From contig NW_027191461.1 in the NCBI RefSeq assembly GCF_011745625.1, positions 372,001 to 436,000 on the forward strand: a stretch of 64,000 bases of DNA, in the 5' to 3' direction. How positions within the stretch are numbered: the first letter of the stretch is position 1; every line of letters begins with the position of its first letter. The DNA comes from Cladosporium halotolerans (Eukaryota). Positions 22,107 to 42,412 of the stretch are shown here, piece after piece. Under the pieces are notes generated by a model. That model ran no database searches. It saw only the letters and a list, made by a program, of their open reading frames with translations, and was not told the DNA's origin. A program made the position numbers and the translations under genes.

Positions 22107-24053
22107 CTAAAGACCCGAATCGTCCATCTCATAAGGCCTGTTTGGATTCGCAGGCACATCCCAGTACTCTCGCCAACTGTCGCAGTTGCTGTTGAAGTCC
22201 GACAAATCGCCTAGCGTATCGAGGATCTCATCCTTACGCTCAAGGAACTGCCAGCTGAGGCCTTGGCCGACGTGCCATGGGATGTGGCAATGAACAAGCC
22301 CTACCATACTAGATTAGCCTCACATGTTCCGCCAAGATGGAGGCCTTCTGCAACTTACATGCACCGGGGTTGTCCGCCGGAAAGCCCATGATCAACCATC
22401 CTCCAGCTGGAAGCAAGGCTGTATCGCGGCGAGGTGGGTTGTTGAACTTTAACTCGGTGGTACTACCGTCCCAGACACCTGAGCCCTGGCCGATGACATA
22501 GTAATCTGCGACAGTGTCAGTCTTTATGTGCACTAACAGAAAGAGAGATCATCGTAGATTGAATTGGAACGGTTTTGAGGCAGGCTTACCATGGCCCTGT
22601 ATGCGATATTAGTATTGCTTGTGGACTGAGCTGGGGCCATGAAACTTACATGAAGATGCATTGGATGCGGCAAGTTGACAGGATCGCCCTGCACGGTTTG
22701 CACGAGCCAGAACGTCCAGGCGTCTTTCTCATTGATTTCAAAGACATTCATCTTGCTCTCGAATGTGTAATTGCTGTCTTGCACGTATTCGAGCGTAGGC
22801 TTGCTCCAGTCAACACGAATGTCCGATCCATTGATCAGCCATTGGATCAAGGGGCCGTTGACCGTGGATACGTTGAAATCCATGGTGAAGCGCTTTATGG
22901 CTTCGTTGAATTTGTCTTGTGGGACTTGGTTCGGGGCGTAAGGGGCTACGCTCTCATCGAAGCAAGCTATAGACTTTGTGATCGTGTTTTGACTCGTCGG
23001 TTCTTCGTCCGGTGCACCTTCGTAGCGGATGATTGACTTAATGTTAGTAGGGTTTCGGTTACGTCCGCAGTTGGTAGCAACATCCGCACGCAGCCAGTAG
23101 TTGCCCACAGCCTGGTTGGCATTGATGATGATGTCGTAGCGCTGGCCGATGTTGATCGAGATTGAATTGGTGACGTAGGGCTTGATAGGGACGAAGTCCG
23201 AAGTGATGACGGTGAAGTTATGGCCGTCAATAGACACGTGGAAGTTGTTGTCGATGCCGGTATTGATGAGACGCAGACGATGCTTCTTGCCCTTCTTTAC
23301 GGTTGCGACGTGGTACTTGCCACCAAACTCGCCCTTCATTGTGCCATTGATGAGACCAGTATCGGCAACGGGTGGTCCAGTAGTACTGTGCAGGGCACGG
23401 ACGTTGAGTGCAAAGACGGTCTCATGGAACCAATCGGTCAGAGTCATAGGTCCCAAATCGTGGTCATAGTTGGCAGACGCTGGTCCGTGGATAACGAGTG
23501 CGCCGACGATACCGTCTCCATACTGTGCAGAGAAGTGCGAGTGATACCAGCTGGTTCCATGCTGAGTGCATCTAAACCTATACTGCACAGTGCCTCCAGG
23601 CGGGATGGGACATTCTGTCACGCCGTTCACGCCGTCGTGCTGACAGCTGTTGAGCATTCGAACGCCGTGCCAATGCATCGAAGTACCATTGTGCTGAAGG
23701 CTGTTCTTCACATTGACAACCATTGTGTCACCCCAGTTGGCTTCCAGAGTGGGGCCGGGATACTGTCCGTTGATTGCCATGACCAATCTTTCGAAGCCAT
23801 CCGGAGCCATTGTCGTATTCGTGATTTCCAAGTCGTAAACCCGTTCGCGACCATTGGGAGGGACCTTGTTGTCAAAATCTGTAGCAATGCTGTAACCAGA
23901 CTGCCAACAGGCTCTGGAGAACGGACCATTCCTGCAAGCCGAATCCGCGGTTTGTCTGGACTCAAGAGCAAAAGGGTTCGGAGCAGCAGATACGAGGCTG
24001 CTCAACGCCACAAAGACGGCGCTGCCAAAGCGGCAGGCATGAGAGAACTTCAT
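22107..24053 (-). CDS. Laccase (multicopper oxidase, AA1); introns 22597-22649, 22506-22589 and 22301-22358
   Basis: Signal peptide MKFSHACRFG..; copper motifs HWHG, WYHSHF, HPMHLHGH, HCHIPWHVGQGL; C-terminal DSGL typical of ascomycete laccases. Confidence 0.95.
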
Positions 24054-26037
24054 GGTGGGATATTGAACGACAAGAAGAAAAGAGATCGCTGCGTAGGACT
24101 GGGAGATGGAAGTCTTCAAACATGATATGTCCAAAGTCATATATGGAACACACACACCGGCTCGTACGATGGATGCCACCGTATTCCGTGCACTAACATG
24201 CTAGACTGCTTCTCTCGGCGATGGATGCTCCTCAGCTGCAGCGGGTGGACGTCCATCGTGTCCGAGCTCGTCTACAATTACGAGCACAATTGCCTGCTAT
24301 CAACGTTTGCTTTCGCGCAGGCCGTTGGAGGTCTTGGTGTACTTGCCATAACGGGGAGACAGTAGCCGTCAAGTCCACAATTAGAGCCTTGGACGCGCCT
24401 TGGCTATAGACGCAAAGCGTCGGTAATTGGAGCTTGCGGGTGAAGACGATTCGGTGCCCACAGCGGCTGTGTGGTTTGCGGCTCAACTCAAAGCACGCCT
24501 GGGCAGGAACTGCGGAGTTCCGGTCCTGGGCGAAGTCTTGGTGCCATGAAGTTGGTATTTCTGTCGCGTGAACAAGCCGCCCTTCCCGCGCGATAACATC
24601 TCAGCCACGTGCCGAATAGGTGGTTTCGTGGCATAGGAGAACCTGTACAACGACAGATCCGGGCTGTCGGAAAGTGATGGGCGCTGAGGACCGCACCTGG
24701 CCGAACATCTGGACTCCTCAGCCGGCTTGGCAAGATCGCATTGTGGATAGGAGCGCGAGTCGTCCAAGCCTGGGTACATACGCTGACTACACCAGCTTGA
24801 GGTGACCGGTGACCATACTGGACTTCCGGTGCTAGGTCAAGTAAAGTTCAGCCTTTTTTTGGAGGCAGCTGAAGTGGAAAAAGTCCTTCGCATCGAAAGA
24901 ACGGCCATAACTCAAGTTCTCACTTGACGGGAAGGTCGCAAAGCTCTATCCGACGTGATAACCTGCAAGTGCGCCACATGCATAGCCAGGACGCGCCCGT
25001 GAGCTGGCGATAGTCGACTTCAAGCTATGGAGATGGAGTTTCGATGGCGGTTGTGGAGCTTGGGGAATAGCGCGATGGATCTGCATGCAATAGGAGAGAA
25101 TTGGCATGAGATAAATATAACAGTCCGTTCCTTGGCTTACGGCTATGCCTACAACATCTCGTAACGCTTTCAGACCTTTCGCTTCATCCATGCCCCAAGC
25201 TTGAATATGGCTGCCGCCACCGGTGAGCATTCGCTTCCTAACTTCTGGGTTCTCAGGCCGCCTAACAGCTGGATCCTCACAGAACGCACCTCCCCTTGGC
25301 GACGCTAGGTCTAATCCTTTAAGTGAGAGCATACCGATTTGCGATACGAGTTGCCGCCTCGTATGACAGGAACAGAAAAGTGATTGGACATGCATCAAGC
25401 CACGCGGTTAGTTCTATGGACTCCCCGACAAGAAAATGTTAGCACGCGTCAATCAATACCTTGCCGTCTCTGAAGGGTGTTTTCGTCTGAGGTACTCTGG
25501 GCATCATTGCTATCCTTACTCTGATGTGACGAACAATATCTGCTACCAATCCCCATGCATGATGCCTTGCTTACCCCGACACTCTGGCCTAGAAAGACCC
25601 GCAGCTACAAATCCACCTTCCACGACATGCTATTCGCCGCTGCGTGGTTTTGATCTTGGGCCAATGTTTAACTCCGATGTCGCATGCAATGCTGGCTAGC
25701 GCATATAACCAAGAGCATCAAATCTTCATACCATCAACAATTACTCGTCACTAATGGGTGCAGCGGTGCGTGCTTAGTCATGCGCGACTGCTTGCAAGGA
25801 GGCCCTGAACCGGCGTACGCTCTCGAATCTCGTGCCTCATCATGGCACCACTCAGCGTTCGATCAATGGTAAGGGCGATGTGCGTAATCACGTCTCTTGC
25901 TGATTAGCTTCTCGGAAGGAGAGTACTATTTTCTCTCGCCCTCCAAAGGCTTATACTCCTGCTCCTGGAGTTTTTGCCATCCATGGCCCTCTACTGTTCG
26001 TGCCTTTGAAGTCTTTCTCATGATCGCAGCAGCAACG

Positions 26038-27304
26038 ATGTTGTGCCAAATTTTGTCAGCCTTCGTCGGCATATTCGTTGGTGTATCTTCGGCAGCAGTC
26101 CTAGGGAATCAAGTCTCCCGGAACGATGCGACGCAAATAGTGAGACGGCAGATGGATCCCAACTCTGTCTGCACTACATACGGCGTGGATTTTGAGGACG
26201 GCGGATCTTATTTCATCGACACCAATTCCAACGCCAGCTTCACCTTCGTCTCCAAGTTTGAAGGGTGCAACAACGATACCGCTAGCTTGCAGTTGGTTAA
26301 CCAAGACACGAGCGACCAATACGATTGCGGCGAAGTGCCAACGGTGCCGAACAACGCTTCTCAAACAGCAAGATGCCAGATTCGCAAAGATCAGTTGGTG
26401 TCCGGCAAATACTTGATCATCGCCATCGGCAACAATGGAAACGGACAGCCCTTTGCTTCCCAGAGGCAATTCACCATCGAAGTTGGAGCGCAGAAGACAA
26501 CCACATTCCGCCCCACGGCAACCATTACGACTACTCCTGTTGTGACAAAGACTTGTAAGTGGCGCTCAAATTCGGTCTCGCACTTGCTCTGACATTTATG
26601 CAGCGATATCATATTTCAACACGACCGTCACAGCGCCTAACAACCTGACGACCACCGAACCTGGGCAGACTCAAACCACCAGGATAACTCCCGGTGAGGT
26701 TTACATCACGACGACTCAAACAATTGCTCAAACCTACCACCGCTCGAACGACTCCACTTCAACCACAACGATCACCGTCACACCAACCTGTCGCCTTCCA
26801 ACGCACTCGCAGCGCCCGTATTCAATGCACAGATATCGGCCGAAATCAAGAGAGCAACCCTGGATTTCCAGTGTGCACAACCCCGGAGGCCCAGGACGTA
26901 TTGTTATTAGCAAGCGCTCGGCGCAACCCGGGCCTTCCAGTGTACATAATCCTGGAGGTCCAGGACGTATCGTCATAAGCAAGCGCTCGCCAGACTCGCG
27001 TATCACAACCGTCACCGCGTCCGGCAACGACACTGTGACCGTCACGGCTCGGGCTTCAACTCAAACGACCGTGGTCGCCACCACCAACACAATTCCGATC
27101 ACGGCGCCGCCGAAGACCGTGAACGGAAACAATATCACGCAGACGGTGACGGAGCCGGCACCAACGAAGATGATAACTGAATTCGTCTACAGCCAGAAGT
27201 ACGTCCTCGAGGCGCTTGGAGTGGTTTGCACCAGCACGGTGACTTCGACGCCTGCTGCTGAAGCGACGGAGTGCCAGAGGAAAGGAGGGCATCTTGAGTT
27301 CTGA
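26038..27304 (+). CDS. Secreted Cys-containing, Thr-rich protein with Kex2 sites; intron 26555-26603 (alternative start 26020)
   Basis: Hydrophobic signal peptide, pro-region ending VRR, 4-Cys N-terminal domain; GTAAGT..CTGAC..CAG intron joins it in frame to the 26825-27304 ORF. Confidence 0.85.
26852..26989 (+). repeat. In-frame 69-bp coding tandem repeat (2 copies) encoding xQPxxSSVHNPGGPGRIVISKRS
   Basis: Core copies start at 26867 and 26936. Confidence 0.92.
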
Positions 27305-27584: not shown

Positions 27585-29169
27585 TTACACGGAAGGCTCC
27601 AAACCTTCCTTCTTCCGCTTCTCCATCAGTCGTTCTGAGACACCAATGATGTTGCCCGAAGGCAGCTTGGCCCTCAAACCATCATCCCTAGGATCATCCG
27701 AACCGAAGTGGAACGGATACGTGCCTTCGGCATCGGTCTGAAGAGTCGGAGGGTGTACCCACCATTGCTCTTTGACAGGATGGCCTTCGGGGCTGATGTA
27801 CTCCTTGTCGTCGCCGTCGGTGCCAGTAAACTTTCTTGCGGAGAATTGTCCGCGTGCAGCGGCCTGTTGTGTCGCCGGCGTGCTGTTTGACACCATCTCC
27901 GCGATCGCCCAGTTGGTCTTGTCTCGCGTGCGACCCGGCAAGTCTTCTTCCGCGACTTCCACGTAGCCATCTTGGATTGGAACGAAGTGGCGCGCCGGCT
28001 TGACCTCGATATCCTTGATCGGCAGAATGCGATGGTAGACATGGTGCTCGTGCGTCTCACGCGTAATCATCTCTTCCCTGATTTCATGTCTGTCCTCTCT
28101 TATCGTCTCGTGTGTGACTGGTGGCGCATATTGCTCGTGCAGAGACACCGTCTCTGGTTTCTTTTGCACGTCAACACCATTGAGGTCGAATGGACCTGGC
28201 GTGTGCGGGGGAGTAGAATCCGCGAGGGCTGAATTAGTATCAAGAGTTTTCCTTTGATTTGTATCCATCGCTGTTGCCGATGGTGCAGGTGGCAGTGGTT
28301 TGTCAAGACTGACTTTTCGATTGTCAAACCACGCATCCATAGGCGCACTCCCGAAAGCATAGTCATCTCTGCCTCCCTCCATAGCCAATGGTGTGAAAGT
28401 CCACGATGCTCCTCTGGGGTCCGGGACACCGTTCGTTTGCGGATCCACGGTGGTCTTGTGCAAGTTCGAATCCCGTTTTTTGACCTTCAGAGGCATCGGG
28501 GCCTGGTCTTGATCCTCCATGGCCGGATCATCGTTGCGCACGATGTTCCAGTCCGCAACATTGCCAGAATGTTGGTCAACGTGGGGAATCAGTGGCTGGC
28601 TTTTGACAGCTGATGCTGAAGTATCCTTGGACAGTGGAAGAACGGAGGATCGGTTCTGGGCTGTGATTGCAATATTTCGATCCGCGATATGCTCGCTATT
28701 CCGCCCCTCGTCTAAGCGGGTGGAAAGATTGCCGTCAGGACTAGAGTTGCCATTGGGCGATTGTAGCAAGGGACTCAGTGTGAGGTTCTGAAAACTGGAT
28801 GAAAAGTCGCGTCCGTGAGGAACTTGAGGCAGACTGAAACTCGGATCGCGAGGTGCCGCTGAAGCTGTGCTTATCGCGTTTGGTTGAGTATTTTCCGGAG
28901 AGAAATTCTCGAAATGCGGCGTGGATCTTGCTGCTTTCGATGCTGTTTCGAGGTCAGCAGATGTTTCCAATACCGTCGCGGATTCCTGTAATGTCCTTAC
29001 CTACTGTATCCTGTCGGTTACGTGGCGCACCACCAGAAGCGGATCTGCCATGGTTGCCAGAGACTTTAGGCGATCCAGTCGAAGAATTGCCCGAGGCGCT
29101 GCTATTGTTGCCCTTTGATCTGTGGAATAAGTTGAGAAATCGGCTTCTGCGACTCTCATCCAGCGCCAT
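27585..29169 (-). CDS. Hypothetical protein with C-terminal His/Glu-rich 'allergen-like' domain; intron 28943-29000
   Basis: GTAAGG..CTGAC..CAG intron joins MALDESRR.. to the 461-aa ORF; APPVTHETI..HEHHVYHRILPI motif. Confidence 0.8.
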
Positions 29170-30723: not shown

Positions 30724-31359
30724 ATGGACTCTGCCAAGGCCGCCGTCAAGGACTTTATGTCCAAGTCTGGTCACCACGACACCACTGTCCACGAGAAGGT
30801 CGCCCCTGCCGTGCAGCACGAGAGCATCGAGAGGCAGAAGCATGAGCAGTACACCTCCGCCATTGACAAGGAGGTTCACCAAGACCACTACCACACCACC
30901 GAGCAGCCTGTGGCGGACCGCGAGGTCCTTCCCGAGCAGCACCACGCCAACGTTATTCCAGTTGAGCACCGCAGCTACGAGCATGGCAGCAACGACGATG
31001 TCGAGAAGCGCCTGGCTGCCGAGAGAGCTGGCTACGTTGACACCACTGAGCGTCACGAGGGTCAGACCACCCGCGACATCAACCCTGTGATCGCTGGCGA
31101 GCACAAGCACCACCACGTCCACGAGACTATCCAGCCCGTCATCCAAAAGGAGACCATTGAGCCTCACGTCACCCACACCACCGTACCCATCCATGAGGTC
31201 CACCACAACTCCGCCCAGCACCACCAGGCCTCTGCCCTGCCCGCTGTCTCCATGGCCGAGTTCAAGCAGCAGGGTGGCTCCCTCACTGGCCGTGATGAGC
31301 GCCAGGACGGCTTCAAGGGCGAGCCCCGCTCTGCTCACTCCACCGAGCCCACTATCTAA
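30724..31359 (+). CDS. His/Glu-rich fungal 'allergen-like' protein
   Basis: 211 aa with strong codon bias, ACAATGG start context; APAVQHE..EVHQDHYHTTEQPV.DREVLPEQHH and HHHVHETIQPVIQKETIEP motifs. Confidence 0.88.
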   Translation: MDSAKAAVKDFMSKSGHHDTTVHEKVAPAVQHESIERQKHEQYTSAIDKEVHQDHYHTTEQPVADREVLPEQHHANVIPVEHRSYEHGSNDDVEKRLAAERAGYVDTTERHEGQTTRDINPVIAGEHKHHHVHETIQPVIQKETIEPHVTHTTVPIHEVHHNSAQHHQASALPAVSMAEFKQQGGSLTGRDERQDGFKGEPRSAHSTEPTI

Positions 31360-34792: not shown

Positions 34793-34943
34793 TCGTCTGT
34801 GGCAGAGACTGAGCAATCCATTCTAATGAGCAGCAGAAGTGCAACCTAATGTAGAAGAAGCTGTTGATCGTCTGTGGCAGAGACTGAGCAATCCACTCTA
34901 ATGAGCAGCAGAAGTGCAACCTAATGTAGAAGAAGCTGTTGAT
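34793..34943. repeat. 75-bp direct tandem duplication (2 copies, 1 mismatch)
   Basis: tcgtctgtggcagagactgagcaatcca(t/c)tc...gaagctgttga at 34793 and 34868. Confidence 0.95.
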
Positions 34944-37408
34944 AGAGCTGCACAGCATCTCGACTTATGAAGCTCAAGTAGGGAGGCTTCTGGGAAATTC
35001 AGAGTGATCTGAAGATAGCCGGCAGACCTGCTGAGCGATGGCGTCTATCTATATTACGCCTGACGTGAAAGGGGCAGGCACGGCATACTTCCTATGGTAT
35101 ACAGAAGTTACGAGAGCGACTTCATGACAGTAACAGCAGCGTCACATCAGCGGAGGGCGACGTCTCACCGGCGAGTCTCATCGGGAATGGTTTGCCTGTA
35201 TGTCTGAGCCGAGTTACTCTTAGATGCATGTCGCTATTTTCGGGCATCACCATGTCGGGTTTCTTGCAATATATGTTCATAGTTTGCATACTATCTGCGG
35301 TGCACGCGCGGCGGATGGCATCCGGTTGGCCGTCGCGGAAGCGATGAGCAGGTCCTCAGTCGCATTTGTAACCTCTCAGCGGCACTATACTGCAGAAATG
35401 GTGTAGTGTATCCTGCCATGGGTGGAAGAATACGCGATCACATGACTGATTCATCATGCGGGTGCTATTTAGCGCGGACGACTGAGAGCCAGTAGATGGT
35501 GAATCGCCAGGCGTGGGGCTTCGTCAGCGCTTGCGGTAATGCGGGCTGCTGCACTTACGGTACGGGGATGCATGAAGCACACAGTACAGGTGCTGAGAGA
35601 AGCGGTTGAGGCTATGGGTATTCATGGTCTTTCCCCCTGCGTTCCTTTGCAGGTAACTTCAGCACATGGTCCAGACGACGAGTATGTACGTCTGCGTGGA
35701 CTGGGAGGTATCGCTTGCATTTGCGGTAATCTGAGTTGGGCGCATCGTGTGTAAAGCGGCAGTGGGATGAGCACAAAATGCTCCAAAGAGAGTGTCGGAC
35801 TATGTGCCGCCCATCCAAGTGATGCGTGTTTATAGTTCCAGGGAAGTATTGAGACGAATACCTCGCTATTGGGGCTAGGGACTGCACGCGGAACCCGGAG
35901 AGGAAAGACGCCTGCTAGGGAAGGGCATAGACGAGTCGTCTTGAGATGCGGACCTCCTCCTTTCAATGCATGTTTATATAAGGTGCGGACCGTTCTAGTC
36001 TTCCAAGATACAAATGAACGCCATGATCGTGGATGCGACAGGGTTGATACGGCGAGAGCAGTTTGGTAATCTGGCGGGCCGCAATCCTGAAGGGCGGCCC
36101 TAACGTTCCGCGACCTTAGACTTTCTGTGGCTTGAAGAAACTCAAGTCGAGGCGAGCGCGTAGGACTCCCCGCGGCAGATGTACACTGTTGTAGTACACG
36201 GGTGTGGGAAGGGCTCGTCCTGACATGCACGTGCTATTGCCATCAAGCCGTCAAGCAGCAGGGGTGAAGAAAACACCAACGAAACCAACATGGACAGCCA
36301 TCCTCATGGCTGCAAGTGTCCGGCATGGTGGAGGCACTTGGCAGCGAATGGGCGAGCGTGGAGGCAGATCCCGCACGAGCACTGATTCCGGGTGGCAAGA
36401 CGGCGACCTCTGCTTCGTCCACTGCCATGCAGCTGGCACGAGGTCAAACACTCGTTGGAGACGCCATCCTCCCGCGCTCCATCCTTGGGCGGGCGTCTAT
36501 GCAGGCAGCCCGCTGGCGCCTTCAGCTGTGCCACCAGCACCCTATGATCCCTATCCCGCCCGGGGCTGCCATCGGCGACATTTGCCTCGCCCATGTCAGA
36601 CTGCGATCCGCTCTCCTTGCTCCTCCCTACCTTTCCTCTCCTCAGACAACACTTCTGGAGAACACCACAAATGATTATACCACGCCGGCCGGCCACCCGC
36701 ACACCCTCTGGCGATCGAGACGCTAGGGAAGTCTGAGACCCTCCATCGACCAAGTCCGTGGTTCGGTAGCAGGAATCCGTCCGCAGCCGCCCGCCCGTCG
36801 CTCTTTTCCCTTGCTCCCATCCCCCACAAAGTCACACGGACACAGCGGCGCAAGCAACTTTCACACTCCCACCAGACATCCTGGACGGCAGGCCGGCGGG
36901 CTGCCCAGTATATGTCGTCCACGTAGCAAGCATCGCCACTCGAGGCTCGTCGCTGCGTCGCGCTGCCCGCTGAACAAGATCTGCCCTGCGTCTGCCGGCA
37001 GAGACAGCGCCAAAGCCCATCGGGAACTCCGTCTGCCTTGCGGTGGCGGTGCACACGCGGCTGCCGACCACTCTCCACTGCCTGCAACGGCCATGCAGGT
37101 TGTCGTGCTGCTCGGCCAGGAATAGCATACTGCCAGAAGGTGCTTTCTTTTCTATTCCTCGTTGTCGTCGTGTTCCTTGCTTTTCGTACATCATCTAAAG
37201 GTAGCTCTGCGCTGGACGCTGACTATCGCCGTTCCCCAGTCCGACTGCCCTCTGAAATCAAGCCGCTCACGCCTATCAAGCGACAAGACTCAAAGAAAAC
37301 GCTTGCGCTCGTCGTACGCTCGGTCTTATACATGGCCAACAATCACATTCTCGCATAGTGTTCTTGCGGCGCCGTGAAGACCGGTCGTTGAGCGCTCGTT
37401 CTCCAACG

Positions 37409-40400
37409 ATGTTGCCTCGAACCAAATCCTTCGATGAACCACCTATACAGCCTACTACGCAGCCCACACCTCCCGTACACCGACAGAATCGCTTTGCGAC
37501 CAACATCCGCCATGATCTACCAAGTCGCATTCCTACGAAAGCCGGCACACTGCAGCAAGCATCAAGTAAGAGCGCGCAGCACATACCAAGATTAGCGAGC
37601 AAGTCTGGTCGGAGCATTTCATCTTCAGATCATGCCGTTTATCAAGGCGAGCCCGGCACAGCGACACCGCCCGCCTCGTTGACAGCCGCGCGTCAGGATG
37701 CGCTGGGCGCACAAGAAGACCGTGTGCGACCACACTCTAAGGCGGCTTCGCAACCACGAAGACGACTGAGTCGCACTACGAATCTTCAACCACCGCCCAC
37801 TACTAGGACACCATCACTTGTCTCTGGCTCATCCCTCCAGTCATTCGAAAGCCCAAGATCGCATGGCCTGCGCAGAAAACCGTCGACAATCAGTTCATTC
37901 ACCGCGCAACGGCGAGAACAAGGGCCAAAAGTGGAGGTGGAAGGCCATGTCGCAATGGATTCTCGCGGCAGAGGAGATCAGGATTCTCTTCACGATGACG
38001 ATGCCGTGCTGGGTATCCAACTGCCACCGACCAGCAAATCTGGATATCAGGGTGCCTTTCTCAAATCTGCTACCCCAGCGGCCCGATTGCCCAACCTGGA
38101 CACACAGAACATAATCGCAACACGAGATCTCACGCCACCCGTCCCTGGTCTTTCGCATTCGGCTACGCCGTCATCTAGATATGCAGACTCGCCGTATAGT
38201 CACGTTCCCACGCCGAGCTCCGCATCGTCTTACTCCAACGGCGTTGCTGCAGTCTCTACCGATAACACCACATATTCATCTTCTACTTCATCACCGTCTT
38301 GCCCAGCGCGTACAGCGAAGACGGTCGGGACGGACGCTGATTCACGGGCCCTGCCGCCAGTCCGCGAATCCTCAACATCCTCTTCCAATTCAACTGTCAA
38401 AGCCAGGGATCATCGAAAGCCAAGCAATGTCGGCAAGGTGCTTGCTCCGTCTCATCCATCTCACACGGCGAAAGCAACGGGACAACGACGAGGCTTAGCC
38501 TCGCGAACCATATCTACGAATAGTAATCACTCAGATCGAGTGTCTCCTCAAGTCCCACCCGAACTCGCGCACCTGAACGTTGACATTCCACCTGGACCGA
38601 GAATGAGCACGACACTCCCTCCGAGAAGGCCGAGCCGAAGTCGAACACCCAGTCTCAATGATGTAAACGACCCTTCGCCGGTTGTGCAAAGTGATTTGCC
38701 TCCGCATTACGCGACATACCACAAGCGAACGCCATCACAGGACACGAACGGCTCCGCCACGTCAACAAGCTTCAGAAGTCGCTTCGGGTTTTCTCCCAGG
38801 TCTTCGTCAAAGCAAGGATCGCCTCGGGTCGACTCGGCTTTCTCGCCTTCTCCAACAATCAATAAGGGAGCCCGGTTCCCGACACCGGATTTGGCAACAT
38901 CGCAGGGCCCGAAAGTGTTGCGCAAGGATTCACCTGCCATAACCCAGTCGCCATCCCCATCACCAGCTCCTTCCAAGTCGCCGCGGTTCAGTTTCTTGTC
39001 GCGAAAATCAAAAGCCAGTATCGAGAAGTCAACGGAGAAGCCCAAGCGGGAACCTCGGAAAGGGCCTGTCGCCGGTACAGGTCATGAAAAATATGCCCGA
39101 TTCGGGTTCCGTGGCCGCAGCGGCAGCACAACAAGCTCCCAAGCAAACAGTCGTACGCCGAGTGCAGACAGCAGCGCAAGTGGTGGTTCGAGATTCGGAT
39201 TCAGGCGGAAGGGCAGCAACACTAGCGAGGAAGGATCAGACATGGACGAATTCCTGCGGGAACGCTTAAACCCTGTCGTGCTGCGGGGAAGTGGTAACAC
39301 ATTTGGGACACAGACCTCGATATGGGCTTCTCATGGCGAAGAGTCAAGCAGTTCCCAGTCCTCGGACAACATTCCGCAACCACAACTACTACCCTCCGAA
39401 ATGTGTGCTGAGCAGGATCGGGTCCCCGTTGGCACGATGCCTTCCAAACAACGATCGCGGTCTGACAGCCATTGTAGCAGCGTCTCTGCCAGAGGCTCTG
39501 CTGCAAACGATTCAGCGCTAAGGCAGCCTTCTGCACAACATATCAAAGCTCCCCACGGCGACTCCCTTGCGGAGACGACCATCGGCACTCAAGGGTCTTC
39601 ACAGACATTGCCATTGGATAATGCTGAGAGTGGAAAAGCAGCACCACGGCGTCAAGATACCACCCCCGCTCCAGAGGTATCAAAGGAAGGCAAAGAGGGT
39701 TTGTGGCTTCGTCCTCTGAAAAAAGAGCAACGTTATCATTCTGCACAGAAGCTACAGCAACCTCATCATCCTGCGCAAGCTCTGGAGTACCCAAGTCATC
39801 CGGCACAGAGGCTTAGGCACAAGTTCAACTTCTTTCAGCGTGCGCAGCATGACAGCAAGTCTAAAATCAGCTCTGATGGGACGGCGGTGCCACCGCAAAA
39901 TACATATCAGGACGCTGTGCACCTTGGTATCATCGATGCGGTAGAACCGGTGGACCTGTCAGAGGTCGAGCGGATTGTCCAAGAGCACGACAAGTCTAAT
40001 ACAAATTCGCCCGCCCGAAGGAAGCGTTTGTCACGTATGCTCTCCTCCGAAAGCAAGCGGAGCAACCGGTGGGCGTCGCCAGGGATTGATCCGTTTCGCG
40101 TGAGTGACAGCTCAGATGCCAAAAGACTTTCGCCCAGTGTGATGGCCAGTCAAAACTTGTGGGAGTCTCCGGAGCTGCTCCAGGCGCGGGCAGTCGTATC
40201 AAAGCATCCCGCCCAGATCGTTCAGATGAAGGTAGCTCCGCCGCCCATGACGTTGCCTGACACGTCTAGAAAGCAGGCGCAAGATGTCACTCAGACTGTC
40301 TCTACGCCTGAACTTGTTCACGACACAGGTGACACCCCTGAGACCCCACGATCAGTCGACATAGCTCGCCAGCCCCGGCTCTCACCAGTGGGTAGGATAC

Positions 40401-42412
40401 CCGCGGTGGTTTCAAAACGTGATCGAGACCGGCGTCTGCCCGACAACTCGTTCTCGCGACCGTTCGCCACTGGTCAGCCTCGTCCGACCGTCCGTCCGCC
40501 AGGCTCGCTTTACAATCAAATCCGAGACCTTGCGAGTCCAGTTGAGCTCGCCTCGCAACCAGTGTCAAGTACCAGCGGCAGATCCGACAGCGCTTCGGTG
40601 GCAAACCAAAGCAGTGTCAACGCAGATCAACCTAGCGCCTCAACCAACCGGTCTAGCTTTGACTTCTATGCCGGCAACGACTTCATCACGTTTGCGCCTA
40701 GGAAGGACTCGGATCTGACTTATTCCTCGAGTAGCTCTGGGAACTGGAATTGGATGTCTTCCATGCCTGCTCATGCGCAGGAGGACGACATCTGGAACGA
40801 GTATAATGATTTGATGGACGATGTAATGCCTGAAAAGACGCCTTTGTCTGCGGGCTCGTCTCTGGGAGCGCCATTTCAATATGCTGGCATGCTGCACGAT
40901 CAACGGAGCCCAGCTATGCCTGCTCCGTTGAACGTGGAGCGACAGCCTTCGCAGCAGCACCAGAATGAGCCACCTGTCTCTCGACAGATCGGTGGCGCCC
41001 GTGACTCCCTTGCGCCACCGGATCAAGACTGCAGCCTCACGCAATTGCCAGTGTCACCTATGGCCCCAGCAGAGTTCGAAGCGGTGGCTATCGCCGAATC
41101 ACAAAACGATGACCGCTTCACAAGCCGTCCTGTTTCACCCTTGACTCCAGACACATTGGCTCGTTTCGTCGGTACATACGGCGACTGCAGTGCAACTTCC
41201 TCGATCCTGCAGCATCGACTCAGCATTCCCCAATCAAACATGTCCGGCTTGCCTATGGCAAATGGCAGCATCTCTTCTCGCCATAGCCGAAGCTCCAGGC
41301 ACTCCAGATCTACATCACTTCCGGAAGCCAATGCCCGCGACTCCCAAATCAGCGTGGGAACGGCCGCTCCATTCAACCGTGATACCCAACTTTTGGACAT
41401 TCCTGAGTATCATACTGGCCAGAAGTCGTCAACACCAAATCTGCGTTTCGGCGCACTCATGACCAGCAAGTGGCTCTCCTTTGGACGTGTCCTATTCAGT
41501 CCGGCTCACAATGAAGTACGCTTGGCCGACGAACCGCGCATTCTGGTCGTAGACGGCCTTGGAGATGACTGGTCGCATTACGTCGCAGCCTCGTATCCGA
41601 ATGCCGCGGTCTGCAATCTCAGTGTCTCCCCGGCCGCTTCTGTTGAGTCCTCTGGCTGGGATGCTCTTCCCAACTACCGCCACTACGACCACACTTCGCT
41701 CTCTGCGCCTTTCCCGTTCCCCAAAGGCTTTTTCACCGTCGTGGTGTTTCGCTTTCCGGTCGCTACGACCGAGTCCGCTTACCAAGCATGCATCTTCGAG
41801 AGCAAGCGTGTGCTGCGCCCTGGCGGACACCTCGAGGTCGTGGCCCTCGACATCGACATGATGAACATGGGGATCCGCGGACGCAGGGCTCTTCGAGGCC
41901 TAAAGACGCGGATGCAACAGCGCGATCAGGACGTTAGCCTTCGCAATCTGAGCGATGTCATGGTCCGCATGATCGGTCGCCGCGGCTTTGAGAGCGTGCA
42001 GCGCTGTATTGTTGGCGTTCCCGCCGCAGGTCGAATTCCACGCAGCGACGACGTCCGCAGCTCCAGCTGCTCTTCGAGGTCTACCGGCGGCCGCCCGCAC
42101 AGAAGCGACAGCAGCAGCACCGACTCGCAAGATAAAGACTTCAGCTTCGCCACGCTCTTGCAGAACAACCGCGAAAGCCAGCTCGTCGGGCCAGGCCGCG
42201 CCAACGACGAAGGCATCACCAAGATGGTGGCCAGAGTCGGCCGCTGGTGGTACTCGGCTTGCTACGAGCAGCAGCTCCTCGAGACAGACAAGAGCGTCTG
42301 GCAGGAGCCGGGCTTGCTGCGCGAGTGCGAGAAGCAAGGAACCAGTTTCCGCCTGCTCATATGCTGCGCCCAGAAGCCTCTCCAAACCCGCAGGCGGACG
42401 GTGAGTGTGTGA
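37409..42412 (+). CDS. Large Ser/Pro-rich protein with C-terminal SAM-dependent methyltransferase-like domain
   Basis: About 1667-aa uninterrupted ORF; RILVVDGLG..DWS, FPFPKGFFTVVVFRFP, ESKRVLRPGGHLE motifs; exact start uncertain. Confidence 0.85.
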   Translation: MLPRTKSFDEPPIQPTTQPTPPVHRQNRFATNIRHDLPSRIPTKAGTLQQASSKSAQHIPRLASKSGRSISSSDHAVYQGEPGTATPPASLTAARQDALGAQEDRVRPHSKAASQPRRRLSRTTNLQPPPTTRTPSLVSGSSLQSFESPRSHGLRRKPSTISSFTAQRREQGPKVEVEGHVAMDSRGRGDQDSLHDDDAVLGIQLPPTSKSGYQGAFLKSATPAARLPNLDTQNIIATRDLTPPVPGLSHSATPSSRYADSPYSHVPTPSSASSYSNGVAAVSTDNTTYSSSTSSPSCPARTAKTVGTDADSRALPPVRESSTSSSNSTVKARDHRKPSNVGKVLAPSHPSHTAKATGQRRGLASRTISTNSNHSDRVSPQVPPELAHLNVDIPPGPRMSTTLPPRRPSRSRTPSLNDVNDPSPVVQSDLPPHYATYHKRTPSQDTNGSATSTSFRSRFGFSPRSSSKQGSPRVDSAFSPSPTINKGARFPTPDLATSQGPKVLRKDSPAITQSPSPSPAPSKSPRFSFLSRKSKASIEKSTEKPKREPRKGPVAGTGHEKYARFGFRGRSGSTTSSQANSRTPSADSSASGGSRFGFRRKGSNTSEEGSDMDEFLRERLNPVVLRGSGNTFGTQTSIWASHGEESSSSQSSDNIPQPQLLPSEMCAEQDRVPVGTMPSKQRSRSDSHCSSVSARGSAANDSALRQPSAQHIKAPHGDSLAETTIGTQGSSQTLPLDNAESGKAAPRRQDTTPAPEVSKEGKEGLWLRPLKKEQRYHSAQKLQQPHHPAQALEYPSHPAQRLRHKFNFFQRAQHDSKSKISSDGTAVPPQNTYQDAVHLGIIDAVEPVDLSEVERIVQEHDKSNTNSPARRKRLSRMLSSESKRSNRWASPGIDPFRVSDSSDAKRLSPSVMASQNLWESPELLQARAVVSKHPAQIVQMKVAPPPMTLPDTSRKQAQDVTQTVSTPELVHDTGDTPETPRSVDIARQPRLSPVGRIPAVVSKRDRDRRLPDNSFSRPFATGQPRPTVRPPGSLYNQIRDLASPVELASQPVSSTSGRSDSASVANQSSVNADQPSASTNRSSFDFYAGNDFITFAPRKDSDLTYSSSSSGNWNWMSSMPAHAQEDDIWNEYNDLMDDVMPEKTPLSAGSSLGAPFQYAGMLHDQRSPAMPAPLNVERQPSQQHQNEPPVSRQIGGARDSLAPPDQDCSLTQLPVSPMAPAEFEAVAIAESQNDDRFTSRPVSPLTPDTLARFVGTYGDCSATSSILQHRLSIPQSNMSGLPMANGSISSRHSRSSRHSRSTSLPEANARDSQISVGTAAPFNRDTQLLDIPEYHTGQKSSTPNLRFGALMTSKWLSFGRVLFSPAHNEVRLADEPRILVVDGLGDDWSHYVAASYPNAAVCNLSVSPAASVESSGWDALPNYRHYDHTSLSAPFPFPKGFFTVVVFRFPVATTESAYQACIFESKRVLRPGGHLEVVALDIDMMNMGIRGRRALRGLKTRMQQRDQDVSLRNLSDVMVRMIGRRGFESVQRCIVGVPAAGRIPRSDDVRSSSCSSRSTGGRPHRSDSSSTDSQDKDFSFATLLQNNRESQLVGPGRANDEGITKMVARVGRWWYSACYEQQLLETDKSVWQEPGLLRECEKQGTSFRLLICCAQKPLQTRRRTVSV

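Follow-up and report, generated by a model that had tools for sequence, protein, structure and literature searches.

A lineage-specific duplication of a conserved Kex2-type cleavage cassette in the linker of a predicted secreted ascomycete protein

The window, by which we mean the whole stretch of 64,000 nucleotides of Cladosporium halotolerans DNA that was analysed, contains a gene of two exons on its forward strand. The features of this gene and of its product are the following, with positions counted from the first letter of the window:

26020..26554, forward strand: exon 1, residues 1-178 plus one base (open reading frame, and a splice joint of 26554 to 26604)
26555..26603, forward strand: intron of 49 nt, GT..AG; the reading frame requires its removal and contigs of the runs X9 and X19 skip it
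26604..27304, forward strand: exon 2, ending at the stop (open reading frame and splice joint); the spliced product has 411 aa
26020..26094, forward strand: likely signal peptide, about residues 1-25 with an approximate end, from hydropathy only
26143..26148, forward strand: RR pro-site in the sequence IVRR, with an aliphatic P4, ahead of the folded domain
26149..26493, forward strand: four-Cys beta-sandwich domain of Ig-like fold, residues 44-158, eight strands in the AlphaFold model
26494..26791, forward strand: first Thr-rich half, ending in Cys241 (placed by Cys conservation), with a predicted long strand at 211-237 (pLDDT 80-95)
26852..26920, forward strand: first 23-codon unit of the repeat, with its invariant core at 26867-26920 and without a KR/RR ahead of it
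26912..26917, forward strand: KR site 1, K282-R283, the duplicated site, read from the sequence
26918..26935, forward strand: SA-QP-GP, three X-Ala/X-Pro dipeptides, a Ste13-type spacer by sequence and published rule
26921..26989, forward strand: second 23-codon unit of the repeat, with its invariant core at 26936-26989
26936..26980, forward strand: predicted trimmed 15-mer SSVHNPGGPGRIVIS (monoisotopic 1475.78; untrimmed 21-mer 2013.04)
26981..26986, forward strand: KR site 2, K305-R306, which is the conserved [KR]R-x-[PA]-D site of the family alignment
26987..27301, forward strand: second Thr-rich half (C-terminal chain, 105 aa), with a predicted strand at 366-392 and a helix at 396-404 containing conserved Cys402, then GG

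A Pfam scan of the 20 long open reading frames of the window returned Kelch, MFS, MBOAT, multicopper oxidase, Clp1, SH3 and adenosine deaminase domains. The laccase-like multicopper oxidase (22533-24200, reverse strand) is divergent from the studied gene at a distance of about 1.9 kb. Two neighbouring open reading frames without a Pfam match (27585-29000, reverse strand, and 30724-31359, forward strand) have in common the His-rich motif H-[EK]-H-H-x-x-H-x-x-I-x-P, by which they are possibly distant paralogs. Further along, an open frame of 1718 codons (37256-42412, forward strand) gave no Pfam match at E <= 0.001.

The initial annotation of this locus had counted on the gene being expressed, and this is borne out by spliced contigs in two runs. 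The 49-nt intron is skipped in two of the four runs, namely X19 (255 letters on the shorter side of the joint) and X9 (22 letters). These two runs had been taken to be RNA by guess, a view supported by the spliced joint itself. One X9 contig spans the whole repeat; X19 and X20 cover it in part, and their repeat alleles are outside the comparison described below. The intron is found at the same position in the orthologs L005-L008. In L008, about three tandem copies of the last codons and the stop form a short array just past the ortholog's stop.

The six most hydrophobic windows of 19 residues all begin within residues 1-11, and this N-terminal stretch is the sole hydrophobic one, there being no hydrophobic tail at the C-terminus. 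The Ig-like domain was matched to known folds with a best Z of 9.7 (rmsd 2.3, 95 residues aligned) and a best Foldseek E of 3.9e-4. These matches are generically Ig-like and, therefore, do not indicate a function. The studied protein resembles the Kre9/KNH-like secreted proteins of fungi (PF10342) in that its Ig-like head precedes a Ser/Thr-rich region. However, the match was rejected as weak and below the cut-off (E 0.041, 15.1 bits versus a gathering cut-off of 24.6), and none of 71 family members match PF10342 at E <= 0.05. Indeed, Pfam offers no family common to more than 1 of these 71 members. The UniRef labels 'AA1-like domain' (one Zymoseptoria fragment) and 'P-loop NTPase' (another member) were rejected as well, since the fold and Pfam searches give them no support.

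A search with exon 1 yielded 16 relatives among 1025 candidates, with identities of 41-61%, and those that carry a name are annotated as hypothetical proteins from Dothideomycetes. A profile search yielded 620 representatives at E <= 0.001; among the 150 matches listed, the named members include Pleosporales, Zymoseptoria, Cadophora and a member of the Xylariomycetidae. In an atlas look-up, the repeat region reached at best 0.77, which is noise level, and a full-length homolog led only to unnamed ascomycete clusters. The studied protein has the four-Cys Ig-like N-terminal domain of this ascomycete family and fits its architecture, which consists of the Ig-like domain, a Thr-rich half, a Cys, a variable linker, [KR]R-x-[PA]-D, a second Thr-rich half and Cys-x3-GG. 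The initial annotation had placed the putative peptide between a Cys domain and a Thr-rich tail; this needs correction, as it actually lies between two Thr-rich halves and 83 residues downstream of the Ig-like domain.

The conservation of this architecture was assessed in an alignment of 73 members, comprising the query and 72 proteins of 330-620 aa from 164 that were fetched (P0001 was left out as unspliced). At the position of the second KR of the studied protein, 62 of the 73 members have KR or RR, 68 have R, 63 have P or A at +2 and 64 have D at +3; with fragments added, KR/RR is found in 84 of 105. Six of the 11 members without KR/RR at this site have [LI]-x-x-R, which the available text of PMC8528282 describes as a wider Kex2 motif. 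The P4 residue is L, I or V in 49 of 62 members, and an XA/XP dipeptide follows the site in 54 of 61, compared with about 22% of arbitrary linker positions. A [KR]R near the N-terminus, such as the RR pro-site, is rarer, at 11 of 59 members. Of the 73 members, 72 have Cys241, and it occurs together with Cys402 in 60 of the 61 that reach the C-terminus.

The linker is the least conserved region of the family (identity 0.23 versus 0.31-0.44), with lengths of 13-257 aa and 0-7 dibasic sites. Its [KR]R density is 2.3 per 100 aa versus 0.07-0.10 elsewhere. The 113 observed [KR]R exceed the 72 +/- 7.5 found in shuffles, none of 1000 of which reached 113, and the enrichment depends on residue order: KR is doubled (58 versus 27.8 expected by shuffling) and RK is not (29 versus 27.6). 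A further dibasic site upstream of the family site is present in 48 of the 73 members. Given the frequency of both sites, removal of a linker from within the protein seems to be usual in the family. This view runs counter to the suggestion of the initial annotation that an excised internal peptide sets the studied protein apart, since those 48 members likewise have at least two dibasic sites around a variable linker. It is conceivable that the KR sites escape cleavage in vivo, for instance because of shielding by O-glycans or structure, leaving an intact single chain in which the repeat serves as a loop motif. We consider this very improbable. Four of the 73 members indeed have no [KR]R anywhere in the linker, and experimental evidence of cleavage was found for none of the family members. 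Against this, the order-specific KR enrichment, the aliphatic P4, the XA/XP at P1'-P2' and the predicted unstructured linker together have the look of a used Kex2 site. The genome encodes a kexin-type P domain and has two genes of the DPP IV family.

In the model of exon 2, two strands of 27 residues each (211-237 and 366-392, pLDDT about 90) flank the unstructured linker. A low pLDDT in the repeat was to be expected regardless of its actual structure, because the homologs lack the repeat. As judged from the secondary-structure assignment, no other long strand is available, and the two strands are most likely to pair with each other in the model. The covariation between the Thr-rich halves (80 sequences) gave, as the best of 280 registers, an antiparallel one with z 3.3, and the parallel offset of 155 that is suggested by the model ranked second with z 2.3. 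A complex prediction for the N- and C-terminal halves of the homolog P0007, made without an alignment, scored 0.04, which speaks neither for nor against a pairing. A fold search with the exon-2 model gave no Foldseek match at E <= 10 and a best VIA Z of 2.2, which does not imply that the fold is novel, and a sequence search of the PDB gave no relative (best E 0.53).

A pairing of the strands 211-237 and 366-392 would create a long stalk below the Ig-like head, which a disulfide between Cys241 and Cys402 is predicted to clasp. In a stalk clasped in this way, the linker would act as a connecting peptide. Dibasic excision of a variable connecting peptide to give two disulfide-linked chains is known from the proinsulin C-peptide and the precursors of yeast killer toxins. 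The likeness to these precursors is one of logic only, and the studied protein bears no sign of a toxin or hormone activity. A further likeness in processing is to Candida albicans Ywp1, where, according to the available text of PMC6258133, Kex2 is needed for cuts at a pair of multibasic sites close to each other, the short spacer between them is lost and the parts remain strongly associated. However, Ywp1 is a wall-anchored protein with an N-terminal propeptide (PMC6258133), whereas the studied protein lacks a hydrophobic C-terminal tail.

Within the linker of the studied protein lies a tandem duplication of 69 nt, for which TRF reported a period of 69, 2.0 copies, 83% matches and no indels. 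An 18-residue core, SSVHNPGGPGRIVISKRS, is encoded twice, at 26867-26920 and at 26936-26989. The two copies are identical in protein, as the initial annotation had stated, and differ at 8 of 18 codons, these being the same eight codon pairs as claimed, with 8 synonymous and 0 replacement changes (omega = 0 over the core). Equally accurate were the KR that it described in each copy (at 26912-26917 and 26981-26986 in our analysis), its RR pro-site (26143-26148) and its 21-mer, which lies between the two KR sites at 26918-26980. The first five codons of the unit contain 3 amino-acid differences (4 nt) between the copies. Over the whole unit of 23 codons, 8 synonymous changes are thus seen versus 4 replacement changes, corresponding to a dS of 0.72, a dN of 0.08 and an omega of about 0.11. 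A decayed third copy was rejected, since identities are only 15/69 nt upstream and 20-22/69 nt downstream. Gene conversion does not explain the pattern either, because it would have homogenised the synonymous sites too. RIP is known to have a size limit that usually exceeds 69 nt. It was also rejected as the source of the synonymous pattern, since it would not spare codon positions 1-2 and since only two of the changes are in a CpA/TpG context, even though 7 of the 8 are transitions.

Based on site counts, the probability that all 8 of 8 changes are synonymous under neutrality is 2e-5. Because the core boundary was chosen afterwards, we also simulated the divergence of duplicates (transition bias 5) and scored the best run in a manner that allows for this post-hoc choice. 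An identical run of 18 residues with 8 synonymous codons had a simulated P of at most 0.0002 at an omega of 1, 0.0008 at 0.46, 0.0045 at 0.3, 0.015 at 0.2 and 0.08 at 0.1. For the whole unit, the corresponding values were 0.0002, 0.008, 0.037, 0.10 and 0.37. In the related orthologs L005, L007 and L008 (L006 was left out, being truncated and near-identical to L005), omega is 0.08-0.10 for the Ig domain and 0.28-0.56 for the linker. Purifying selection on the two copies, as claimed by the initial annotation, is therefore supported by the site counts, the simulation and the omega of about 0.11, and its strength is about that of selection on a folded domain.

Both copies are intact in the sister strain X5. 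Compared with the reference, the repeat of X5 has 2 changes that are synonymous and none that replaces a residue, versus 10 and 13 codons elsewhere. This count, which covers 39 of the 41 differences of X5, is too small to establish a contrast (Fisher p about 0.22 by hand). The synonymous divergence between the strains is about 0.04, and the copies have been kept over a dS of 0.7-1.1. This implies that the duplication is much older than the split of the strains.

These figures bear on a simpler interpretation, according to which the repeat arose by ordinary tandem duplication of a cleavage site: selection would act only on the Kex2 context (about IVISKRS), the remaining identity would reflect coding constraint and luck, and the shed peptide would be waste. 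We regard this interpretation as unlikely. The whole-unit omega is close to that of the relatives' Ig domain and, hence, not extreme, and the whole-unit P values at omegas of 0.3 and 0.2 are modest. Moreover, the family tolerates the wide range of linker lengths and dibasic-site numbers given above, and the nearest relatives do without the repeat. However, the eleven core residues upstream of IVISKRS contain 5 synonymous and 0 replacement changes, the 18-residue run remains improbable at an omega of 0.3, which is the low end for the relatives' linkers, and both copies were kept for far longer than the time separating the strains. If the peptide is indeed waste, the finding would amount to an ordinary short duplication in one mould lineage.

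The initial annotation had named absence of the repeat from relatives as a refutation of its claim, and at the level of the family this absence is seen, though the repeat is intact in the sister strain. A comparable repeat with a KR is missing from all of the 72 other full-length homologs and from the nearest relatives, and the longest internal repeats in their linkers are one Gly/Ser low-complexity run and others of <=5 residues. A quick tree, without P0163 and P0152 and with L007 entered as its exon 1, places the query in a group with P0002, P0136 and L007 (support 100), all three of which lack the repeat. The genome also contains two paralogs (L002:1411-2601, forward strand, on contig C79, and L003, reverse strand, on C489), which have the usual basic linker with several dibasic sites and a terminal KR, and no repeat. 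A search of 5.8 billion proteins for the core returned nothing beyond the sister allele P0017 (1 match, 37 candidates), and no match was found elsewhere in the genome. P0017 is an exon-2 fragment of 182 aa that is near-identical to the studied gene, with the same repeat protein, and is filed in NCBI under Cichorium endivia. It probably represents fungal contamination of a plant assembly.

An exon-2 search for sister species gave 4 matches among 1245 candidates, none of them between 40% and 93% identity, which means that changes in the spacer cannot be polarised. We also considered whether the core derives from the P-x-x-G-x-x-I...KR linker end of the family. This was rejected, as the profile scores were no better than those of shuffles (386, 983 and 620 of 1000 shuffles reach them). 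Since the core is unlike the family linker profile, it is not an inherited docking element. With the repeat missing in relatives and the second KR conserved in the family, KR site 2 is the inherited site and KR site 1 its duplicate. The repeat is therefore a lineage-specific duplication of a family-conserved cleavage cassette, under selection and found only in this species' lineage. The literature covered, mostly outside subscription journals, contained no mention of the peptide motif, of two member identifiers or, by keyword, of the architecture. The core was likewise absent from the searchable part of the supplements of two KEP surveys, which were covered in part and may list it.

The known enzyme rules allow the maturation of the protein to be predicted. 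Kex2 would cut after R43, R283 and R306, and a digest at KR/RR in silico gives fragments of 18, 240, 23 and 105 aa. Kex1 would take off the KR, and a Ste13-type dipeptidyl peptidase would shorten the inner peptide by SA, QP and GP, and the C-terminal chain by SP. The latter step follows from the rule that, after Kex2 cleavage, Ste13 takes off XA/XP dipeptides (PMC6339444, PMC9769878, in the available text). Removal of SA, QP and GP from the 21-mer would leave SSVHNPGGPGRIVIS, which starts exactly at the start of the invariant core. The Kex2 processing proposed by the initial annotation thus finds support in the Kex2-type sites with an aliphatic P4 and the in-register Ste13-type spacer, and release of the inner peptide is likely as judged from these sequence features. 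Less well supported is the emphasis on the free peptide as the thing that matters, since copy 1 has no upstream KR/RR and would stay on the N-terminal chain. The nearest candidate site before copy 1 is PKSR with Ser at P2, which is not among the preferred Kex2 P2 residues in the available text of PMC8528282, and the residues that follow it, EQ, are not a Ste13 dipeptide.

The released 15-mer could still be a true secreted signal or effector peptide, in which case the linker of a structural secreted protein would harbour a young pheromone-style cassette (KR, Ste13 spacer, core, KR). This is the main rival reading, possible but doubtful. It gains from the exactness with which the three in-register XA/XP dipeptides stop at the invariant core, given that runs of three or more such dipeptides are rare, being found at 1.7% of linker positions (78 of 4473) and behind 3 of the 105 internal dibasic sites in the family. 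Indeed, so exact a fit of the spacer to the core points to a peptide made for release. Furthermore, all 4 replacement changes between the units are in the spacer and none in the core, and Ste13 signatures are taken as marks of hormone-like peptides in the available text of PMC6339444. A single Kex2-flanked peptide has been detected from a GH128 precursor, and cleavage after a single Arg, also reported, could free copy 1 as well (PMC9769878, available text). However, the spacer fit was spotted post hoc, XA/XP after KR is a family habit, and only one free copy would be made per precursor of 411 aa. The lack of a KR/RR before copy 1, the unfavourable PKSR site and the absence of the core from everything searched beyond the sister allele also speak against a free signal.

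Comparisons with known peptide precursors lead to a similar picture. In common with KEPs, the studied protein has near-identical repeats that both end in KR, so that the repeats are separated by KR/RR, and a Ste13-type spacer after one site; judged from hydropathy, it also has a putative signal peptide. However, KEPs are defined by three or more repeats (PMC6339444, PMC7329392, as far as their text was available), and membership in this class, as proposed by the initial annotation, is not supported: there are two copies, and copy 2 alone has a KR at either end. In addition, unlike in KEPs, one released unit is predicted, and the cassette takes up 46 of 411 residues in a folded, family-conserved protein. 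The proposed RiPP core fared no better, as no UstYa/DUF3328 match lies on the studied contig C2, and the 4 matches are on C46, C276 and C196. A dikaritin (ustiloxin-type) precursor was rejected, since the dikaritin core has a conserved Tyr for cyclisation (PMC6339444, available text) and the 21-mer has no aromatic residue. Like an alpha-type pheromone, the protein has a Ste13 XA/XP spacer after a Kex2 site, namely SA-QP-GP after R283. Nevertheless, a Dothideomycete alpha-type pheromone was rejected, because the available text of PMC6339444 describes either a core with two Cys or, in Pleosporales, the motif PYG[L/M]P[I/V]G, and both are absent from this core, which has neither Cys nor Tyr. As a separate observation, the genome contains a single STE2 match (G000:C394:922857-923786, reverse strand) with one in-frame TGA, which may be an intron.

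A closer parallel is Coprinopsis cinerea 365456, a GH128 precursor in which one short peptide, with a sequence that varies among homologs, lies between Kex2 sites of a folded secreted protein and which, in the available text, its authors do not class as a KEP (PMC9769878). The peptide of 365456 precedes the domain and was detected by MS (PMC9769878, same text), whereas the studied peptide is internal, duplicated and predicted from sequence. Kex2-separated repeats are also found in Ustilago maydis Hum3 and Rep1, and in Hum3 they are joined to a folded domain, a hydrophobin; these proteins have 12-17 amphipathic repeats of 31-55 aa (PMC4617103, available text), as opposed to the two Gly/Pro-rich repeats of 23 aa in the studied protein. 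With Hum3 as a precedent, a hybrid precursor is not a new kind. Indeed, Kex2-released peptides from folded secreted proteins are already known.

Taken together, we favour, with about even confidence, the explanation that the studied protein is a secreted member of an ascomycete family that is cut by Kex2 into two paired chains, and that its duplicated linker end sheds a 15-mer which most likely represents a short motif for binding, active in the attached state and not as a free hormone. Copy 1 would remain as the C-terminal tail of the N-chain and copy 2 would be shed. The weakest step is the proposed constraint on the 15-mer, which in both copies may be imposed by binding, tethered or free, to the precursor itself, to a processing or sorting factor, or to a wall partner. 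The identity of copy 1 with copy 2, despite its lack of an upstream KR/RR, favours a role for which release is not needed, whereas the spacer fit discussed above argues against the motif working in the attached state. A bolder version combines a proinsulin-like maturation of the whole family, as a disulfide-clasped two-chain beta-stalk, with a connecting peptide that has here been turned into a cassette releasing a bioactive peptide. We regard this combination as improbable. If true, it would show a KEP at its very origin, with too few repeats to pass the threshold of three that the genome surveys apply.

For the family as such, which has at least 620 divergent representatives, no Pfam family and mostly 'hypothetical' members, the conserved Kex2/Ste13-type site and the Cys pair predict a two-chain maturation. 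The duplication provides a concrete case in which a disposable linker may be becoming a source of peptides, a step that KEP surveys miss since they require three repeats.

Lastly, a second two-copy tandem repeat is present in the window at 34793-34943. It has a period of 75 and 98% matches, which indicates that it is much younger than the 69-nt duplication.
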